Positions 1 to 61,175 of a stretch of DNA of 64,000 bases are shown here, one piece after another. Numbering within the stretch: the stretch's first letter is position 1; each line of letters opens with the position of its first letter. A program made the translations under genes and the position numbers. The stretch is from NCBI GenBank assembly GCA_001661245.1, contig KV454012.1, forward strand, positions 1,198,848 through 1,262,847, in the 5' to 3' direction. The stretch comes from Pachysolen tannophilus NRRL Y-2460 (Eukaryota). The notes below the pieces were generated by a model. It was given only the letters and a program-made list of their open reading frames with translations, did no database searches and was not told the origin of the DNA.

Positions 1-924
1 ATAGCTTCAATTTCTGACAGAAGTTTTTTCAAATAAGAAATGATCAAATTTTCATCAAAATAAATTAAAGAGAGTAAATCTGCATATTGATAATAATTTG
101 CATTTATATTGATATTTGTTATTGGTGTTGATTGTTTTTCTATTAATTGAGATTTTAAGAAAAAAAGAAAATTTCCTGGATTTGATGCAGCCAAATATCT
201 TAAAATTGATTCACAATTTAGATCTATGCTATCTATTAATGATTGATGAATATGATTTGGTTCAAAATTTTCATTTCCTTTCATTTCATTTATTTTTTCT
301 AAAACTGCTCTACCAGATTTCAAATTTGCTATTATCAGTAATGCTTTATTCATTGTATCATCATCCAATTTCTTTGGACGTACAGTATGATAATATACTC
401 TTGAAGCTGATGAACCTATTCCAGCAACAGAACTCAATTCATTTGAATTATAATCTTTCTTAATATATTTTACAGAAGTTTCTTCCATAGTATTCCAATT
501 AACTTCCAATAAATCAGAAAGTAATCTTAACATTACTAAAATTGATCTTAATGAAAGCTTCTTACGGTCCACTAATGGAACATATTTATCGTACTAAATA
601 AATTATTAATAATTAAAAAATTGTTAGTATAATGGAATTGTTTTGAAATTAATAATTGATAAATTATGAATTTTTATTAACCATTATTTTACTTACAGCA
701 TTGATCTCTTCTAAAATTGAACATGTACATCTTATCATATCAGAAAATTTATCTGTTTCTGCAATTTTTAGTAAAGTATTTCTACTTCTTACAAAAAAAA
801 CATCTATCTCCAATTCCGACACTGTTAACCCTGATTTCAAAGGAAGCTGAGGACCTATCCTTGAATATATGGATTCCACAAGAGAACCAGCAGGAATATT
901 CGACTTATCCCATATCAACCCCAT
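1..924 (-). CDS. IRA2: Ras GTPase-activating protein Ira1/Ira2 (neurofibromin family), 5' part. Exon 1 697-924, intron 594-696, exon 2 runs off the window start.
   Basis: Exon 1 LVESIYSRIGPQLPLKSG resembles Ira2 LVNHILFERILPILPVES. Minus-strand intron has a GTAAGT donor at 696, TACTAAC branch and TAG acceptor at 594 (phase 0). Exon 2 reads YDKYVPLVDRKKLSLRSILVMLRLLSDLLEVNW...SILRYLAASNP, matching Ira2 SILIILRLLSDALEYNW...ILRFVAASNP. Confidence 0.85.
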
Positions 925-1908
925 TATAAAGTATATACATACATATATATATATATATGTATATATATATGAAGTGATTAATTGCTCTTGTATATGATTT
1001 TATATATCGAATTGCTATGCTACTTCAATAATAACAAAACAATATTCCCAAAAAAAAAATAAAAATTTAATTCTTTATCTATGATTATCAATTAAAAAAT
1101 GGGTAATTATTTGATTTAATGATTTAATTTATTTCTGTTTAATGTTTAAAAAAAAAAATAAATATTAAACTTGAAACCCCATCCAATTGATCATCAAGAT
1201 AAACTTCTTTGATACCTCGATAACAATAACAATAACAATAACAATGTCTATTTATATTCTTATTCTTATTGTTATTATTAATATTAATATTACTCCAATT
1301 ACTTTTTATAAATATTTAAGTTAACCGCTGTTACAAATTGTATATAATTTGCCTTATACTAGTTAAAGAAGGTATCTATCTGTTTTAACGGTTTCGTTAA
1401 ACTTAGTCGCAAAGAGAACAAAAAAAAATCAAAAAAAAAAAAAAAACCAAAAAAAAAGAAATTAAAAACAGCTTTTTGATTATCTGCGCACTACTGTGTT
1501 TACATATATATATACATATATACCACATCACAGCGCGATTAAGGTACAGTGCTTACCGCTCATACATTAGGCGCATCGCAAGATGAATTTATAATTATTT
1601 TAAATGTGGACCGCAGTTAAAGTACACAGATGCGTACCACAGATGTAGTAAAGAAGAGCGCAAAAAAAGGTTTTTTATTATTATTTTCTTCAATAGTAGT
1701 AGTAGTAGTAGTAGTTATAATGATTACTATTAAGACAGGAATATCAAAACACAAGTATATTTCTGATTGTAATTTATTTTAAAAATTATGGAGCAAGCCA
1801 TTAAGGAATGTATATTATTAGCTACTTTTTCAAATTTATTTTTTTTTTTTTTTTTTGTTGAGCCAGAAGCAATTTACTAACTTATTATTATTTTTATTAT
1901 TTATTTAG

Positions 1909-2288
1909 CCGTTGTTGTAAGAGGTCGTTATGCCGGTAAAAAGGTAGTTATCGTCAAACCACATGACGAAGGTACCAAATCCCATCCTTTCCCACATGCC
2001 ATTGTTGCTGGTATCGAAAGAGAACCATTAAAAGTTACCAAAGGTATGGGTGCTAAGAAAGTTGCCAAGAGAACTAAAGTTAAACCATTTGTTAAATTAA
2101 TAAACTACAACCATTTAATGCCAACAAGATATACTTTTGACGTTGAACCAATCAAGTCCGCTGTCACCGGTGATGCTTTGGAAGATCCATCCCAAAGAGA
2201 AGCTGCCAAGAAGGAAGTCAAGAAAGAATTTGAATCAAGAGTGGCTAGTGGTAAGAACAAGTGGTTCTTTAGTAAATTAAACTTTTAA
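1909..2288 (+). CDS. RPL27: 60S ribosomal protein L27 (eL27), exon 2 only on this strand
   Basis: TACTAAC at 1875-1881 and TAG acceptor at 1906-1908, then (A)[21 protein letters not shown]...[10 protein letters not shown]...[12 protein letters not shown]. Codon usage is strongly biased as expected for a ribosomal protein gene. Confidence 0.97.
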
Positions 2289-2819
2289 AAGCAAAAATGA
2301 AAAAATGAAATAAAGAAAAGAAAAAAAAAAAAAAAAAAAATTAACAATAACAATTAACATAGGTTGTTTTTTCTTTTTTTTTCTTTTTTTTTTTTTTTTA
2401 TTATTCTTTCTTAACTTGAAAAAAAGGAAATATGAGTTTTTGTGAGTTTTTGTGATTTTGTTTTTAATCCATGTATAAAAATTTCTTTAAAATGGGTAAA
2501 TAGAGTTTTAATTTATATGATTCAATCACTTGGTGGAAAAATTGAAAATGCAGTATATTCATTCACCAAAAAAGATAATCAACTACTGATTAACTTCTTC
2601 CCATACTGAACCAGTCTAAAAATTTATCAAAATTTTCTCACAATACAACTGGTAACAATTCTTTTCATTCATTTATTCCATCCATCCATCCATCCATCTA
2701 TCTATCCATTAACTAACTAACACATTCATTCACTCACTTATTCACTCATTAACTCATTAACTCACTTGAACAATTCCCTCTTCTATTCACATATTGATAA
2801 AATTATTGAAATTACATAC

Positions 2820-2850
2820 CAACTTTACCTGATTTAATAAACTTAGCCAT
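2820..2850 (-). CDS. RPL27: RPL27 exon 1 (MAKFIKSGKV plus G), on the opposite strand to exon 2
   Basis: The reverse complement reads ATG GCT AAG TTT ATT AAA TCA GGT AAA GTT G|GTATGT. 31 nt plus 380 nt gives 411 nt, a 136-aa protein, the normal eL27 length with the yeast intron position. Confidence 0.95.
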
Positions 2851-3621
2851 TTCTAATGATATATTATTTTAATATTAAGTGTTATGGTAAAGAAACTTTT
2901 AATATTTTAATAAAAATTTAAATAAAGCAAAATTTTAGAAATCCCAGTACAAAAAGAGTGAAAAATTGGAAAAAAAGAGGTGAAAATTTTTGTTAGTTGA
3001 AAAAAAAAAAAAAAAGAAAAAACAAATCATAGACTGCACACGTACTTTTTTTTTCTTTTTTTTTCCTAATTAAGTACCGAAGTAGTGTGAGAAAACTGTG
3101 GATCCATTATAGACGATCGTTCTTAGTTTTACTCCAAGTGATCTACTATTAATAAAAGGGTAATTCTGAGAATACTTTTTTTTGTGACTGCTAATTTCTT
3201 TGAAACCGATTTACGATTAACGTTTAAGTAAATGCTACACGACTCGCAGCTCACGGCTTATTATTTAGGGAGGGTTCACCGGTCAAGGCTTAAGAGAAGG
3301 AGGAGGAGGGGGTAGTAGTGGGTAGTAAGTACTACATAGGATTTACTTACTAGCGATAAGAACACTACTACATGTTATATTATCAAATAATAAATTGCAA
3401 TTAAGAAAAAAAAGGTAGAAAAGGTGAAGAAATAAAATGCAAATCTCATGGAAATATATAATATAAAATAAGCTGAAATAAAGGGTAAGCCAGCTTTACC
3501 TCTTTTGTGTTTTGTCATTTGTTACTTGTTACTTGTTATTTGTCATTTGTCATTTGTCATTTTTTATTTTTCAATTTTCATTTTTCAATTTTCATTTCTA
3601 CCGTCTTGTATTTGAATTTAT

Positions 3622-6600
3622 CTATTTCTTTCTCTGGCTTCTAGCTAAGAATTTCGAATTTAAACTTGTGATCAACTTCTTTGGACTTCCTGCACTATTT
3701 GGGTTGCTGTTATTGCCGCTATCACTGTTGTGACTATGATGATGGCGCTGATGTAACATATGGCGTTCGGAATTTACTTGTGCAGATGGAGATACCTTTC
3801 TATTTGATGAGACAAATGATGAAGATCTGTAATTATTACCGGAAGAAGGATTTATCTCTGGATTACGCATGGCTGTATTGATTGCTCCAGCTATTAAAGC
3901 ATTATCACTTATAGATCTGTTATGGCCTGGCTTCAAGCCATCTCCATTTTCTGTTGGTGGTGGTGGTTTGCGGCGTGGTCTCCTAGAGTCATGACCTCCT
4001 CCTTCGCCAGTTGATTTTTGGCGTTGTTCTTCCATCGATGACCTATGACTTTTATTACTAGACGCAGATTGTAATAACTGATTTATGGCCTTTAAATCAT
4101 AATCTTTAATTGCATCAATTGCAATTTTTGGTGAGGTTGGTGAATCGGTTGTAAAATCGGTAGTATCGCTTGTTGCAGATCCATTATTAGCAAATACAGG
4201 TGATGATGATGAAACCTTAGCTGCAATTATTGCTGCTGTGGCGTTTGATACAGAACCAACTTCAGATTCAATTGACTCTCTTAACCTTCTATCTTCTTCA
4301 TTAGATTTCGACTTAGCTAAACTTGTGGTCCATTTAATCACCTCTTGTTTTTCAACCTCACACGATATCGTGACTTTAAGTGATTCAATAGCAAATAACC
4401 CCGTGGTTATTGAATTTTTCACTCTTCTATCTCCTATAACTTCTTTAAACTTGATTGCAGGATTTGTTAAATCAATTTCAGTTTTCAATTCAGTCTTATT
4501 TTTAGATGTTTTATTTTTTTCAAATTTTAATATTAAGGCCCTTCCAAATGTTGTCACTAATAAAGTACGCTCTATGGACAGCTCATGATCTGTTGAAGAT
4601 GTATTGTGCGAACCAGCACCTCCTGTTAGTCCACTGAAAACTTTCCTAAATTTACCGCCTGTGGTGACGTTCGATTCATTTGATTTACTCTCTTTACTCT
4701 TTTCTGATTCAACTTCTTCATCTGCAGCACTATAAACTATAGCTTCATCAGAATCGTCTTCAGAAATTGTTGAAATATTTTGGTTCTGCTGATTTCCAGC
4801 ATTACTACCAATACCAGGACTACTTGAATGCCTTAAACCTGGTTGTTTACCATGTGCAACTTGTGTTAAAAAACTTGTTGCCGATGCGTTTGATGATCTT
4901 CTACCGTTATTATAACCCAAAGGAGAATCGGCTAACATTCCTTTATATTTTTTCTCAAATTGAGCTGTTGATATTTGTGTCACCATTACAGGTCCAACTT
5001 TTAAAACTCTTTCATCGGGGTGCTTAAGATATTCTGACCAAGCTAAATCTACAGGGCCCATTTGTGGCACTTCTGTCGCTTGAGGAATATATCTCGTGTT
5101 TTTGGATGAAGACGATTCTCTCATAGAGCTTGAACTTTTCGATCTAAAGCCAACGTTATTGCCACTACTGTTATTATTATTGGAAGCAGTACCAGTTGTG
5201 ATTCCAGCTGAAATTCTTGATTTAATAACAGGTCTTAGAATATTAGTGCCCGGAATATATAAATCTTGAGAAGAATCACTGCCACTAGCATAAACAGTAC
5301 GTCCAGATGTCAGCTGATTTGACTCTCCTGTACTAGTATTACTACTGTTATTATTACTATTAATCATAATTTCCGCTGGTTTTTTCATCAAGGCAGCAGC
5401 AGCAGCACTGCTTGCCGATTTACCTGGTAAAACATAAGATTGTTGAGATTTTTTTGGTGGCGTCGACGGTGGTCCGGATTGATTGGATTGATTTGGTGTT
5501 GTTGGAGCTGATACAGAAGATGATGACAGTTGTAGCTTCAGGGATAAGGGAAGACCCAACTGAGGAGTCGATGGTTGGTTAGATGAAACTAAACTATTGC
5601 TTGATGCCGAATGCTTGCGAGTACTTAGTCTTGTATAATTATTAGTATTGTTGTTGTTGTTGTTATTAATGTTCAATTCTGGTACCGGCATCATGGATTT
5701 TGCTGTCACTTTATAAGGACTTAACTCTGGAAGTGGAGCTTCAAAAATAGAATCTGAATCTGACCAATTTATACCCTGATAAAAATAATGATTTTGTATT
5801 GTTTTTATAGTAGCTCTATCTTTTGGATTTAAAACCAAGATTTTTTTAACCAAGTCTCTAAGTACCAGTGGGAAACCTGCGGTGAAAGCATATTGCAATT
5901 TACAAACTTTTTGAAATGTTAAATATTCATTTGTGGCTTTAAAAGGAGGTTTACCAGCAATCATTTGATATATGATACATCCATATGCCCAAATATCACA
6001 TGCTTTACCTGCATATTTATCATTTAGCAATTCTGGTGAGACATATTCTGCCGTACCTACAAACGACTTTGCTCTTGCGTCAGACGGATATCTACCATTT
6101 TCATCTTTTTCCAATAATTTAGCCGTTCCAAAATCTGTAATTTGTGCTCTCATTTGAGAATCTATCAATATATTTTCTGGTTTCAAATCTCTATGAATAA
6201 CACCATTATCATGCATATATTTAACACCATCTAAAACCTGAGCACCATAGTATCTAACACATTCTTCATTCATACTTCCAAATTTTTTAATCAAAGTCAA
6301 CAATTCACCATTTGGAGCATAATCTAATACAAAATAAAGACTTGATTCATCTTGAAATGTAAAATATAAATGAATTATTCCATTTCTTTTCCCCAATCTA
6401 TTCAATGTATTCTTTTCAATATTAACATATTTTACTTTTTTCTCTTTAATTATATGTCTCTTATCTAAAACTTTAATGGCATAATTTTTATCTGTAGTCT
6501 TATCAGTTGCTAAAATCACTGTAGAATACGAACCTTCACCTAAACTTTTACCAAATTTAAAATCTTTTGCGGATTTTTTAATAATTTTTGTTATCAAGTT

Positions 6601-7137
6601 TCCATTTTCATCTTTTTCAGTCTTGATAATCTTTGCAGCGCCCCTCTCTTCCCAATTTTTAGATGAAGCTGCTAAATTTTTAGTAAGATTATGAATATTG
6701 TCATCAGAAGTTATAAGTTCAGTTGTAACACTGTCAGGAATAAATAATGAAGCTTCAGACATTGCTTTCATCTCACCATTTTTGAGGTAATGTGGTGGAA
6801 GCGGGGTTGACGGTGCCGTCTGTGCCACATGATCACTCAAAGGTGAAGATGAAATGGTTTCCAAGCGAGCCGATAGGTGTCTTATTGGAACCTGGACATT
6901 ACTATTAAAATCCAAAGATCCTACCGCTGTAACATCGTTCTCATCATCTTCACCGAAACTAGATGAATTCTTCTTATAAGCATCTACTATATCCATTGCC
7001 GATGAGGGACCTATACTGTTCTGACGGCGATCATTTTGATTACGGTTATGGTTACGGTTATGGCTATGGTGATGGTGATGATTATGGGGATGGCCATGAC
7101 CGCTGTTATCACTATTATCTAATATAGGACCAGACAT
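3622..7137 (-). CDS. PKH2: PDK1-family Ser/Thr kinase Pkh1/Pkh2
   Basis: DFKFGKSLGEGSYSTV, VKYVNIEKNTLNRL, HRDLKPEN, DFGTAK, SFVGTAEYVSPELL, KATNEYLTFQKV, plus a C-terminal PH-like region. Confidence 0.93.
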   Translation of the reverse strand: MSGPILDNSDNSGHGHPHNHHHHHSHNRNHNRNQNDRRQNSIGPSSAMDIVDAYKKNSSSFGEDDENDVTAVGSLDFNSNVQVPIRHLSARLETISSSPLSDHVAQTAPSTPLPPHYLKNGEMKAMSEASLFIPDSVTTELITSDDNIHNLTKNLAASSKNWEERGAAKIIKTEKDENGNLITKIIKKSAKDFKFGKSLGEGSYSTVILATDKTTDKNYAIKVLDKRHIIKEKKVKYVNIEKNTLNRLGKRNGIIHLYFTFQDESSLYFVLDYAPNGELLTLIKKFGSMNEECVRYYGAQVLDGVKYMHDNGVIHRDLKPENILIDSQMRAQITDFGTAKLLEKDENGRYPSDARAKSFVGTAEYVSPELLNDKYAGKACDIWAYGCIIYQMIAGKPPFKATNEYLTFQKVCKLQYAFTAGFPLVLRDLVKKILVLNPKDRATIKTIQNHYFYQGINWSDSDSIFEAPLPELSPYKVTAKSMMPVPELNINNNNNNNTNNYTRLSTRKHSASSNSLVSSNQPSTPQLGLPLSLKLQLSSSSVSAPTTPNQSNQSGPPSTPPKKSQQSYVLPGKSASSAAAAALMKKPAEIMINSNNNSSNTSTGESNQLTSGRTVYASGSDSSQDLYIPGTNILRPVIKSRISAGITTGTASNNNNSSGNNVGFRSKSSSSMRESSSSKNTRYIPQATEVPQMGPVDLAWSEYLKHPDERVLKVGPVMVTQISTAQFEKKYKGMLADSPLGYNNGRRSSNASATSFLTQVAHGKQPGLRHSSSPGIGSNAGNQQNQNISTISEDDSDEAIVYSAADEEVESEKSKESKSNESNVTTGGKFRKVFSGLTGGAGSHNTSSTDHELSIERTLLVTTFGRALILKFEKNKTSKNKTELKTEIDLTNPAIKFKEVIGDRRVKNSITTGLFAIESLKVTISCEVEKQEVIKWTTSLAKSKSNEEDRRLRESIESEVGSVSNATAAIIAAKVSSSSPVFANNGSATSDTTDFTTDSPTSPKIAIDAIKDYDLKAINQLLQSASSNKSHRSSMEEQRQKSTGEGGGHDSRRPRRKPPPPTENGDGLKPGHNRSISDNALIAGAINTAMRNPEINPSSGNNYRSSSFVSSNRKVSPSAQVNSERHMLHQRHHHSHNSDSGNNSNPNSAGSPKKLITSLNSKFLARSQRKK

Positions 7138-7765
7138 TTATCATAGATATTTCTTTCTAATATCAACAACAACCTTAAAAATATCAATAATCCCAACACT
7201 AATGATGATTATAACTCAATTGATGTCTTAAACATTAATTTATTTGCTTTTTCTATTTCTTGTCTTTTTTTTTTTTCTTTAGAAAAACTGTTATTCTTAC
7301 CAATGCAATAAACTTTTGTTGTATTTTTATAAATACACTTGCTTGATTTATATTTTCTACCCCAAACAAATTAAAAAAAAAAAAAATAAAATAAAATAAA
7401 ATAAATGATTTGCAAATAAGTTGAATAAACTCTAAAAACACTTGAATCAAATCACTATTCAAATATTTAAGCTCTATTCAAACTTATTTATGCTTTATTG
7501 TATTAATAACCTTACCGCCTTTTATATATTATAATTACAATTACAATTATAATATACAAAATAAATTTATTTAATTTAATTTTTCTTGTTTTGTCCTTCC
7601 TTCTCTTATTTGGATGTATCTCAACCGCGATAAAAAAAAAGGTTGAAAGAGGCAACGGGGAAAACAGGAATAATGAGGGCGGGCTTGGGCCAGATCATGA
7701 GCCGGAGAATGAGCCGGAGAATTAGTGAGAGTTTAGGCCTCGACGGAAAGAACAAAAACAGAAAC

Positions 7766-7796
<31 letters not shown>

Positions 7797-8228
7797 NNNN
7801 NNNNNNNNNNNNNNNNNNNNNNNNNNNNNNNNNNNNNNNNNNNNNNNNNNNNNNNNNNNNNNNNNNNNNNNNNNNNNNNNNNNNNNNNNNNNNNNNNNNN
7901 NNNNNNNNNNNNNNNNNNNNNNNNNNNNNNNNNNNNNNNNNNNNNNNNNNNNNNNNNNNNNNNNNNNNNNNNNNNNNNNNNNNNNNNNNNNNNNNNNNNN
8001 NNNNNNNNNNNNNNNNNNNNNNNNNNNNNNNNNNNNNNNNNNNNNNNNNNNNNNNNNNNNNNNNNNNNNNNNNNNNNNNNNNNNNNNNNNNNNNNNNNNN
8101 NNNNNNNNNNNNNNNNNNNNNNNNNNNNNNNNNNNNNNNNNNNNNNNNNNNNNNNNNNNNNNNNNNNNNNNNNNNNNNNNNNNNNNNNNNNNNNNNNNNN
8201 NNNNNNNNNNNNNNNNNNNNNNNNNNNN
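7797..8228. other. Assembly gap (N run) flanked by long poly(A) tracts
   Basis: Seen directly in the sequence. Confidence 1.
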
Positions 8229-8288
<60 letters not shown>

Positions 8289-56592: not shown

Positions 56593-59500
56593 ATGACTAT
56601 AAACTTCTTGCCGGGGAATCCAGAATCTAGTTTAACAAGTGTGTGTTATGCAAATTGGCATAGTTTAGATATATTGTCGTATTGTTCAGGTAATAATTTG
56701 ATAATTATCATTAAGAACTTTCAATTTTTACAAACTATATATTTGGATGCCGATTGTTCATGTTGTGATATTAATAAACATAATGGTAAAATTGCCATTA
56801 CAGTTGCAGATAAGGTATTTATTTATAGACCAGATGTTCAAAATTATTTTGATTTTAAGTTTAATGGTAATGGGAAAAATTTAGGTTTGTTGAATGTTAG
56901 ATGGGAGTTGGAGATGACCATTATAAATGATCTTGACCATTCTAAGATCAATTGTATAAATTGGTCTGCAAATTGTGACTTGAAGAATAGTGAAGATAGT
57001 GATGATGAGGATGATTCTAAAACGAGAAAAGATGCTCCGGAAGAATTTAATACAGAGACAAATTCTGAATTAATAGTTGGATCTGATAAGTCTTTATCTT
57101 TTTGGAGACTTTTTTATAAAAATAAATCTTCTCCAACGAATAAAAAATTACATCCAAAATTGTTGTGGTTTAAAGAGCAACCTTCACCTATTTATTTGGT
57201 AAAAATTTCTCCTGATTCAGGTTTAATAGCGAGTTGTGGGAAATTTGATAAATTAGTTAAAATTTGGAAAAGACTTTCATTTGGTATTGAAAATGCAGAA
57301 TTTGATTTAAATTATTTAAAACATTCCCATTTTATAACAAACTTTAGATGGAAACTAACAAATGATGATTCAACAGATTTGCCCAAGGATCAAAGTGAAA
57401 TTTCAAATAGTGTATATTCTTCATTAAGTACACCAAGTTTATCGAGTACGAATTCAAAAGAAGTCAATACCTTATATACATTAACTACAGACTCAATAGT
57501 AAGAATATGGTCATCTTTTGAACTTGATAATAAACATTTTACACAATTCAATGGTGCATTAGATTTATTTGAAAATGGCGGTAGAGAATTTTGTACAAGT
57601 GGTTCAAATAAAACAACTGAAGACTTTAGATTTTTTGCAGTAATGGATAATTCGGTTGTTAATTTTTGCCTTAATAAGATGATAGATAATCTTATAGTAG
57701 AACAGGAACAACTTTTAAGGAATGGTAAAAATTTTTCATCAAGAAGGGGAAGCGGTAGCAGCATAACTTCATATTTGCAAGATAAAGAATTAAAATTAAC
57801 CAAACTATTAAATCAATCAATAGAATTATGTTTTGTGATTGATAAAGCGGGTTCAGTCCTTTTATACCTGATTGAAAATTTATCCATTAATCCACCAAAG
57901 TTGGCCAAGATAATAAAATTAAATAAAGAAAATAATATCAATGACTTAAGTTTAGGCCCAAACTGCTTCCCAAAACATGCTAAATATCTATCTTTCCAAG
58001 ATTTTGTCATATCAAGTCATTATAATTCTGTAACAGAAGAAACCGATAATTATATCAATCTCATAGTTCATGATTTGGAGAAAGGATCTATTAGACATAT
58101 TGAATTTACACTTAATGAAATATTCGATTCTATGTTTACTGTGAATGATACATCAGACAATAATTCTGCCTTCAGTGATTCCACCGTTAATAGTTTTCTA
58201 AGTAATTCCCATAGAAATGGAAATGGTTATTATCTTTCCCGCAATCAAAATAATTATAAAACTGAACATAATCGCGATTTTATTGGCACTTTACAACACA
58301 AATTTACAGGTCACAACAAGTCAATTAAAAGGTTGATTAGATCAAATGATGGTTCATCGCTTTTATCACTAACAAGATTTTCTGAAAGTTTTTTATGGTG
58401 TCCTATTAAATTAGGTAATACAAAAAGATCAAAGCATCATTCTTCCAAACATAAATCTCATCATTTACAATGTAATGATGCAATTAGCGGGAATACTTTA
58501 AGTCGTAAATCAGTTATTAAGACTTCTCTGCCCATTTTGGATGCTATAATATTAAATAAAAATGGTCATTACGTTATTTCTTTGATTGAAAATGAAATCA
58601 TATTATGGAACTGCATAGCAAAAAAAAAAAAATAGCTGAAAAAGTGGCTTCTTTAGTTACAAATATTAATTATAAACCTTTGAGTTTTATATTACTCCCC
58701 GAGGTTTCAAATAATACTAAAAACATTTACCATGTCGTTTCAATATACTCCAAAAAAGAAATCAAATCTTGGGAAATCGAAATAGGAGACTCGCATAAAG
58801 CTACCGCTATACGCAATTTTGAAATTGACAGCTTACCTTCTGAACAAGAAGATATATTGAGAATTTCACCCATTGATCCAGTCGGTTGGAATAATACTAT
58901 TGATTATGAAGATTCAAACCTATATAAATATGATATAAAATCTTCAATTCAGAGACCTGTGTTATCAATAATTGATAATAAGGGGAACTTGAGAATCTAC
59001 TCGATGAATATAGTTGGAGGAAATAGAATAGAGTGGATATTGAAAAGCTTGACAAGAACTAATATTAAAAATTGTAAGTTTTTCAGAGGATCAACTTTAA
59101 ACAAAATCGCAGTAGTTGATGAATCATCTAAAAAATTGTTCATTTGGGACTCAATGACAAAACTTTTGGAATATGAAGAAGAATTTGATCTGATTATCCA
59201 AGATTTGGATTGGACTTGCACAAATACTGACTTTAGATCGATATTAGCTGTTGGCTTTCAATCACGTGTGTTATTGTATACACAGCTAAGATATGACTAT
59301 ACCAATGAATCACCATCTTACGGTCCTATTAGATCAATTGATGTATCTGAGCTGACTTCACATAATATTGGAGATTCTATTTGGTTAGAAGATGGTACCT
59401 TAGTTATTGGTTCTGGGAATCAATTTTTTGTTATCGATAAGTCAATTGATGTTTCCAAAGATTTCTTATCACAAAGAGCAATTGGTTCTAAACAGATTAT

Positions 59501-61175
59501 AAGTGATGATATTTTTTCTTTATGTTCTGTTTTAAATGGTCCTTTACCTATTTTTCATCCTCAGTTTTTAATTCAATCATTGTTTTTAGAAAAACATGAA
59601 ATTGTCAAAAAAATTTTAGTTTTATTAAATGAAAAGCTAAGGTCTGTCGAATTAGACCCTGATGGTGATATCTTAACAGATATAAATAGTACATTAGGTA
59701 TTGATATTGATAAGCTTACTATTGAATTTAGTGATAATAATGATATCAGTGATAGTGGTTTTCAAAACCATAAATTGAAAAAACAAAACTATCAGTCTTT
59801 GTTTATTGATGGTAAAAATGATGGTGAAGATCATAAAATTTTTGATAAAAACTTGGCATTTTCTTTAATTGAAAAATTACAAAAAATGAAATTACCATTT
59901 TTAACAAGACATCAACAGATTACATTAGTTTCTGTAATAGAAACTGTATTAGACATTGATATTAATTACAAAAAAATTTTGGATAGTAATGGGTTAAGGT
60001 ATTATTTAGGTATGAAATTATTTCAATTAAATGCAACAAAAATTAAAAATGATCATTCTTTAATTTCAATTAGAGATATCAATTTTGCTTTACATAGTGG
60101 GAATAAGGATATTTTATTAAATATTGTAAATGAAATATCACATTTTGAACTTAATTGGTTAACAACGAAAAAATTAGGTTTAGTTTATTGGTTATCAAAT
60201 GGTAAATTGGTTGAAATTTTTGAAAAAATTGCTAAATTTGAATTTTTAAAATCTTCTGAAAGATTTAAAGATCCTTCAAAATGTTCAATTTTTTATTTGG
60301 CATTAAAGAAAAAGCAAATTTTAATTGGATTATGGAAAACAGCCACTGGTCATCCTGAACAACAAAAAATGGTTAAATTTTTAAGTAATGATTTTAAAGA
60401 AAGAAGATGGAAAACTGCTGCTTCTAAAAATGCATTTGCCTTGATGGGTAAACATCGTTATATTGAAGCTGCATGTTTTTTCCTTTTGGGAGATTCTTTA
60501 AAAGATTGCTGTAATGTTTTAATAAGACAAGTTAAAGATTTACAATTAGCAATTGGTGTTTCTAGGTGTTATGAAGGGAACGATGAAGGAGCCGTTTTCA
60601 AAGATATTTTAACATCTTATCTTTTACCGATTTCAATTCGTGATAACGATCGTTGGCTTAGAAGCCTTATCTATCATATGCTTGGGCAAAGAGAAAATTC
60701 AATTCAATGTTTAATCAGTGACGAAGAAGAAGTAGAAGAAGAAATAGAAGAAGAAAATGATGATGATGAAGAAGAAGAAGAACATACATCTTTGAGAAAA
60801 TCATTTTTAGAGTATGATCCAGTATTAATTGTATTATACAAGAATTTAAGACTACAAGGAGTCTCATCACCAAATGAATATAAATTCATTTTAAAGATAA
60901 TTTCAATCTACAATAGAATGGGTTGTGATCTACTATCTCTATATATTGTGAAAAATTGGAAATTCAAATACGATTTTATGGGCCAAAGTAACAACAACAA
61001 CCTTAAAAAAATTTCTTCACATACTTTCCAAACACCGTCTACAACCGTTCCAAATAATTCAACCAATACAACTCCATCAAATCAAGAACAAAAAATCGGT
61101 AGTGGCTTTGAAAAGAAAAAATTTGTGGAACCTCCTTCTTCTTTGGAGTTTGACATGGGTGCATTTGAATTTTAG
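56593..61175 (+). CDS. RAV1: RAVE complex subunit Rav1, apparently frameshifted at an A13 run (58620-58632)
   Basis: N part: MTINFLPGNP, SYCSGNNL, FTGHNKSI. C part: DLDWT, LYTQLRYDYTN, IGDSIW, LNGPLPIFHPQFL, FYLALKKK, RWKTAASKNAFALMGKHRY. Confidence 0.9.

Follow-up and report, generated by a model that had tools for sequence, protein, structure and literature searches.

Gene content and arrangement of the eL27 locus

The stretch of DNA analysed here, referred to as the window, comprises 64,000 nucleotides of Pachysolen tannophilus NRRL Y-2460 and is AT-rich yeast DNA with a G+C content of 30.1%. It contains, not far from its beginning, the gene of the ribosomal protein eL27 (RPL27), whose exons and splice signals are distributed over both strands, next to a PKH-like kinase gene:

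1875 to 1881, plus strand: TACTAAC, the branch point in the intron of eL27, located on the piece that we regard as turned
1882 to 1908, plus strand: 3' end of the eL27 intron, with the acceptor AG at 1907 to 1908, 27 nt behind the branch motif
1909 to 2288, plus strand: eL27 exon 2, consisting of the bases CC, 125 codons and the stop codon TAA, recognised by translation, the PF01777 match and blastn to relatives
2341 to 2813, minus strand: 5' part of the eL27 intron, joined to exon 1; its presumed extent assumes junctions at a T18 and an A20 run
2814 to 2819, minus strand (read 2819 to 2814): 5' splice site GTATGT of the eL27 intron, adjoining exon 1
2820 to 2850, minus strand (read 2850 to 2820): eL27 exon 1, starting with ATG and encoding MAKFIKSGKV plus a G, the first base of codon 11
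2851 to 3621, minus strand: spacer between the stop codon of the kinase gene and the ATG of exon 1, the presumed eL27 promoter, as suggested by a G+C-rich cluster and by synteny
3622 to 7137, minus strand (read 7137 to 3622): PKH-like kinase gene, just upstream of exon 1 and on the same strand

Translation of positions 1911 to 2288 of the plus strand yields 125 amino acids ending in SKLNF, followed by the stop codon, and this product matches the Pfam family Ribosomal_L27e (PF01777) over the full profile (positions 1-85 of 85) with an E-value of 1.6e-38. The TACTAAC motif in front of it is the sole plus-strand copy within positions 1 to 5000. The conserved N-terminal strand of the protein, M-x-K-F-[IL]-K-x-G-[KR]-V-A, is encoded at 2850 to 2820, on the strand opposite to the remaining gene, and the exon 1 peptide MAKFIKSGKV is the same as the N-terminus of the homologues P0007, P0009 and P0047 in our alignment. 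The 31 coding bases of exon 1 and the 377 of exon 2 add up to 136 codons in phase, and the codon split by the intron (G+CC) specifies alanine, which is the consensus residue at this position among the homologues. Neither half displays any decay: exon 1, GTATGT, TACTAAC and the acceptor AG are undamaged, as is each of the 125 codons of exon 2. Nevertheless, in the window as assembled the two exons are convergent, and they are not colinear in a way that would allow cis-splicing to the 136-aa frame.

An initial annotation, made from the letters of the DNA, had placed exon 2, branch point and acceptor on the plus strand and exon 1 with its GTATGT donor on the minus strand, and every one of its coordinates proved right. 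Its description of two intact and phase-compatible halves (G+CC = Ala) of a 136-aa protein is borne out by translation and alignment, and its failure to find another exon 1 on the plus strand or a branch point on the minus strand is reproduced by three kinds of scan. A six-frame search recovered no further pieces of eL27 in the 64-kb window, the 1200 nt that precede the branch point on the plus strand contain no canonical donor of the form GTA[ATC]G[TA], and no consensus branch point occurs on the minus strand from 2819 to 900, where a relaxed scan gave only AGCTAAT at 1823.

The non-coding surroundings display some further features. The 5' half of the intron carries tetranucleotide-type microsatellites at 2662 to 2766, composed of TCCA/TCTA repeats and CATT/CACT-like units. 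Clusters of G+C-rich motifs stand out at 1480 to 1660 and at about 3090 to 3360 in spacers of 30% G+C, each upstream of the start of a minus-strand gene, and are presumably promoter elements. An Rfam scan of positions 1 to 8000 for an intron-borne snoRNA that might explain the cluster at 1480 to 1660 returned only mir-1277 with an E-value of 0.27, which is at chance level. The motif TTAGGG near exon 1 was considered as a promoter mark and discarded; with 11 sites in the window it is not distinctive.

Comparison with the loci of relatives

Eighty metagenome-contig loci with relatives of exon 2 were available for comparison, and all of them were scanned for the exon-1 pattern. The species' own locus was absent from this metagenome scan, in which the best match was 82% identical. 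The loci fall into three groups:

L001 to L011, the closest group (11 loci with 70-82% identity): both exons on one strand, exon 1 first, with the junction G|GTATGT or G|GTACGT
L017 and L033: N-terminus continuous, without an intron at that site
remaining 67 loci: no match to the exon-1 pattern; more distant fungi with other gene structures

Exons 1 and 2 are colinear in all 11 closest loci, with the intron at the same position and in the same phase (after V) as in the window, and the implied introns measure about 141 to 820 nt. When positions 900 to 3650 of the window are aligned by blastn, exon 2 matches in forward and exon 1 in reversed orientation against each of these 11 loci. The convergent arrangement thus exceeds chance, and the window differs from every one of the 11 relatives by one inversion.

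Synteny indicates which of the two parts has moved. In six of the 11 loci (L001, L003, L004, L009, L010 and L011), tblastn located the PKH-like kinase gene immediately in front of the colinear eL27 gene and in the same direction; in the other five it was not found within the 3-kb flank. Since the kinase gene precedes exon 1 in the window just as it precedes the colinear gene in these six relatives, the piece with exon 2 is the turned one, and exon 1 keeps its ancestral place and direction. The blastn alignments to all 11 loci and the synteny thus uphold the view of the initial annotation that, in the assembled sequence, exon 2 with its stop codon and the 3' intron end is inverted relative to exon 1.

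On the other side of eL27 lies a minus-strand gene at 3 to 924, which is interrupted by an intron (GTAAGT at 696, TACTAAC at 629) and continues beyond the start of the window. Its exons gave no Pfam match at E <= 0.01, and the gene was not found downstream of eL27 in the loci of the 11 relatives.

Public gene model and copy number

The public proteome already contains the product of exon 2: it is 100% identical to P0002, a protein of 133 aa from Pachysolen tannophilus NRRL Y-2460 that UniRef names 60S ribosomal protein L27. The N-terminus of P0002, MEQAIKES, corresponds to the start of a plus-strand ORF at 1788, and the model implies the following additional feature:

1788 to 1809, plus strand: makeshift first exon of the public model (MEQAIKE plus a T), with a GTATAT donor at 1810 and an intron of 99 nt

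All 19 full-length homologues start with M-x-K-F-[IL]-K-x-G-[KR]-V, from which P0002 differs. Four other introns are recognisable in the window, three with the donor GTAAGT and one with GTATGT, whereas GTATAT lacks the G at +5. Similar makeshift N-termini are present in the models of other species that missed the short exon 1 (P0003, P0004, P0008 and P0014). Because its N-terminus departs from 19 of 19 homologues and its donor lacks the G at +5, the first exon of P0002, which begins at a chance ATG, is probably the work-around of a gene predictor for a missing exon 1, and thus a mis-annotation caused by the turned piece.

The copy number of the gene bears on all explanations considered below. 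Among the best 120 of 1515 protein matches, which represent annotated proteins, no second eL27 of this species was found, and the protein cluster of P0002 comprises a single member from a single contig. eL27 is required for growth, as known from the genetics of S. cerevisiae, and for this reason a broken single-copy eL27 gene is unlikely in a healthy strain of a culture collection.

Homopolymer runs and candidate junctions

Long homopolymers are unusually frequent at this locus: of the 18 A or T runs of at least 16 nt in the window, five fall within 1431 to 3015. These five alternate between the two bases, namely A16 (1431), T18 (1839), A20 (2321), T16 (2384) and A16 (3000), and two nested inverted pairs of runs, T18/A20 and A16/T16, flank exon 2:

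1431 to 1446: A16 run, alternative outer left boundary, inside an A-rich arm at 1412 to 1461
1839 to 1856: T18 run, forming an inverted pair with A20 and favoured as the left end of the turned piece
2321 to 2340: A20 run, favoured as the right end of the turned piece
2384 to 2399: T16 run, alternative outer right boundary, inside a T-rich arm at 2368 to 2417

The two arms of 50 nt (1412 to 1461 and 2368 to 2417) are 78% complementary. As A and T runs alternate, every piece between them has orientation-symmetric ends. The piece between T18 and A20, for instance, still begins with a T run and ends with an A run after reverse complementation, and joining at the runs therefore cannot fix its orientation. 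The possible junction pairs lead to different genes when the piece between them is turned back:

1857 to 2320 turned back (T18/A20): piece of 464 nt, colinear minus-strand gene with an intron of 551 nt
1447 to 2383 turned back (A16/T16): piece of 0.94 kb, intron of 898 nt
1717 to 2580 turned back (AGTAGTT/AACTACT pair): intron of 431 nt

The junctions probably lie at the inner pair T18/A20, with 1857 to 2320 as the turned piece. We favour this pair because it requires the smallest change and results in an intron of 551 nt, which is inside the range of the relatives, and because it keeps the G+C-rich cluster at 1480 to 1660 out of the intron, in a position in front of the neighbouring minus-strand gene (start at 924). 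Turning of the outer block, 1447 to 2383, is possible and less likely, as its intron of 898 nt exceeds the maximum of about 820 nt among the relatives and would include this cluster. The initial annotation had proposed AGTAGTT and AACTACT as a weak junction pair and a turned segment of about 0.9 kb (0.86 kb for that pair). The heptamer occurs seven times in the window, compared to 8.9 occurrences expected from shuffled sequences, so the pair does not exceed chance level, and the homopolymer pairs imply a piece of about 0.46 kb, or of 0.94 kb for the outer pair, in place of the proposed length.

Two other rearrangements were considered and rejected. If the piece with exon 1 (2400 to 2999) were turned instead, exon 1 would follow exon 2 on the plus strand, and the synteny of kinase and eL27 would be broken. 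A plus-strand gene could be obtained by both moving and turning the exon-1 piece, which needs two rearrangements and is contradicted by the synteny.

Short-read contigs

A search of sequencing runs retrieved five matching runs from two studies in the form of assembled contigs, none of them recorded as RNA, and contigs of four runs were aligned on positions 1000 to 3600. Runs of both studies contain a proportion of 0.90 of the sampled 31-mers of this region, so nothing in 1000 to 3600 is grossly wrong, although the measure is insensitive to the few words that cross the junctions. In the exon-1 region (2419 to 2988, disregarding the repeat at 2662 to 2750) the contigs show no differences from the window; one contig of 613 to 614 nt represents the region in each of the runs X1, X2 and X5, whereas X4 has two. 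The exon-1 contigs of these four runs from two studies extend from about 2404-2419 to about 2988-3017, where the end at about 2404 was estimated from record lengths in three runs, and they end at the T16 and A16 runs. The hole in the listed contigs at 1174 to 2391 carries no weight, as a filter and the skipping of repeats produce such gaps. Two contig joints, 1076 to 3046 and 1610 to 2912, have low-complexity sides of only 20 to 22 nt and were taken as spurious.

Origin of the convergent arrangement

The discrepancy between an undamaged gene and an arrangement that cannot be spliced in cis can have several explanations. We consider it very probable that the convergent arrangement is an orientation error made in the genome assembly and not in the cell, and misassembly, which the initial annotation had named as the simplest alternative, is judged the likeliest explanation here. 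Most likely, eL27 of this species is an ordinary, intact, single-copy gene of which the exon-2 piece was turned in the assembly. The piece 1857 to 2320 would have been set between T18 and A20 in the wrong orientation during assembly, and the true gene would lie entirely on the minus strand, with the promoter below the kinase gene, exon 1 at 2850 to 2820, an intron of about 551 nt, and exon 2. The data show the anatomy of the locus, the colinear state in the relatives, the synteny, the homopolymer boundaries and other homopolymer defects of the assembly; we infer both the origin of the inversion in the assembly rather than in the cell and the pair of runs that holds the junctions, and regard this reading as probable.

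This explanation is supported by the colinear genes and the synteny of the relatives, by an intron length inside their range once the piece is turned back, by the ends of the short-read contigs at T16 and A16 runs, by the inverted runs that bound the piece, by the undecayed state of both halves and by the lack of a second annotated eL27 of the species among the matches listed, and indirectly also by the homopolymer defects and the contig statistics of the assembly described below. On the other hand, neither presumed junction contains an N, so that either the data or a gap-closing step joined the sequence as shown. Reads of at least 100 nt normally span runs of 18 to 20 nt, and a modern assembler should therefore orient such a piece correctly. 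Furthermore, no aligned contig shows the other orientation, although the contigs listed do not include 1174 to 2391 and leave the junctions uncrossed.

Homopolymers are associated with defects elsewhere in the window as well. Its only gap, 432 N at 7797 to 8228, is flanked by A30 and A56 (7767 to 8284), which means that contigs of this assembly end inside a very long poly-A tract. A RAV1-like gene on the plus strand (56593 to 61175) is broken up into a 680-aa ORF and an 856-aa ORF that overlap, and the latter carries the Rav1p_C domain (3.6e-224). One frame gives way to the other precisely at an A13 run (58620 to 58632), and the split has the appearance of a homopolymer miscounted by one base during assembly, as far as the reading frames can tell. 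A published table lists the public assembly of the species at scaffold level, with the contig N50 in the 10^4 bin and the scaffold N50 in the 10^6 bin.

That the inversion is real in any form appears unlikely to us. The version to which we would give most weight, while still considering it improbable, is a recent inversion in the sequenced culture between the T18/A20 (or A16/T16) runs, which broke the gene in cis and was tolerated by virtue of a rescue that escapes view, be it an unassembled second copy, a mixed population or a makeshift plus-strand model. In its favour, the sequence is joined without Ns, the runs of two studies contain 0.90 of the sampled words, the piece is flanked by inverted runs, and the lack of decay fits a very recent event. 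Runs of 18 to 20 nt, however, recombine very poorly, no second eL27 of the species is among the best 120 of 1515 protein matches, and selection should act strongly against a broken ribosomal protein gene of which there is a single copy. Moreover, the exon-1 contigs are letter-identical across the two studies, so that both would have to carry a mutation private to one culture. A DNA flip-flop, in which the piece would be a programmed invertible segment that turns eL27 on and off, likewise draws on the inverted runs around the piece, and we hold it to be the least probable of the explanations weighed here, one that hardly merits credence. There is no recombinase site or long inverted repeat (the best pair has 50 nt, is 78% complementary and of low complexity), switching off an essential ribosomal protein would be without evident use, and two orientations were not seen in the aligned contigs, of which none listed crosses the junctions.

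Alternatively, the inverted state could be the functional one, with the sole eL27 mRNA produced by trans-splicing of two convergent transcripts, a minus-strand transcript with exon 1 and the 5' half of the intron and a plus-strand transcript with the 3' half and exon 2. The two would be brought together by their overlapping tails or by pairing of A and U runs near the branch point. The splice signals are perfect on both halves, convergent transcripts would overlap in 2289 to 2813, and a T-rich direct repeat (1819 to 1856 and 2360 to 2397; 38 nt, 76%, of low complexity) would allow an A-rich stretch of the minus-strand RNA to pair immediately in front of the branch point. Animals provide real precedents. 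Nevertheless, we consider this explanation highly improbable. The mRNA of a ribosomal protein is required in very large amounts, beyond the yield of an inefficient bimolecular reaction, and the plus-strand half would need a promoter of its own. To our knowledge there is no natural case of pre-mRNA trans-splicing in budding yeast, and none was apparent by title or abstract among the literature matches listed. The suggestion of trans-splicing or DNA flipping in the initial annotation has found no support. Marginally less credible still is that the public model is right and the gene is a plus-strand gene with the first exon MEQAIKE at 1788 to 1809 and the 99-nt intron, in which case the minus-strand exon 1 would be a relic. 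This model is indeed present in the public proteome (P0002, 133 aa), and the ATG at 1788 and an in-phase GTATAT do exist. Apart from the aberrant N-terminus and the missing G at +5, it is opposed by the supposed relic itself, which is letter-perfect at the protein level and has a perfect donor, and by the makeshift N-termini of other models in which the short exon 1 was missed.

If the arrangement is an artefact, the public reference assembly carries a small inverted piece, and the eL27 of the proteome has a wrong N-terminus, MEQAIKES instead of MAKFIKSGKVA. Together with the two more homopolymer-linked defects in the window this is a warning to users of that assembly. The locus also provides a neat test case for assembly checkers, because the alternating A and T runs free every piece between them to flip. 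If, on the contrary, the arrangement were real, an essential yeast ribosomal protein gene would be split across strands, which would be remarkable, and if trans-splicing were true it would represent the first natural spliceosomal trans-splicing in budding yeast, in an essential and highly expressed gene. Most likely, the inversion is a property of the assembly and not new biology.

Comparison with known systems

Genes with parts on both strands have been described from animals. In Caenorhabditis elegans the halves of eri-6/7 lie on opposite strands and are trans-spliced, and according to the account in PMC11414722 the inversion is polymorphic among wild strains, the direct repeats that mediate trans-splicing stem from the ends of a Polinton transposon, and the joined mRNA has been demonstrated. 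The likeness to the Pachysolen locus, as far as that account goes, is that of a coding sequence whose halves were placed on opposite strands by an inversion. In contrast, the present case has only A/T runs and no transposon, is seen in one assembly, and concerns a highly expressed ribosomal protein gene of a yeast. In mod(mdg4) of Drosophila, alternative 3' exons on the opposite strand are joined by intragenic trans-splicing, an arrangement that PMC4528330 ascribes to small inversions; the same source describes many clusters of alternative 3' exons with their own promoters, conserved across Drosophila. Here, too, exons of one mRNA are found on both strands. Unlike the exon clusters described for mod(mdg4), the Pachysolen gene has a single constitutive exon in the inverted piece, and the convergent state is found in none of the 11 relatives.

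Errors in the orientation of pieces between inverted repeats are a general class of artefacts in scaffolded draft assemblies. The eL27 locus resembles this class in that inverted low-complexity runs enclose a piece of small size (0.46 or 0.94 kb), and in that contig ends and a frameshift occur at homopolymers. It differs in that the junctions are without Ns and that the presumed error is deduced here indirectly and not from reads. With an ordinary budding-yeast RPL27 the gene shares the PF01777 domain, the exon 1 peptide, a phase-1 intron after codon 10, the signals GTATGT, TACTAAC and AG, and the upstream kinase neighbour that is found in six of the 11 relatives; it departs from it in that its exons lie on opposite strands in the window, while they are colinear in all 11 relatives.
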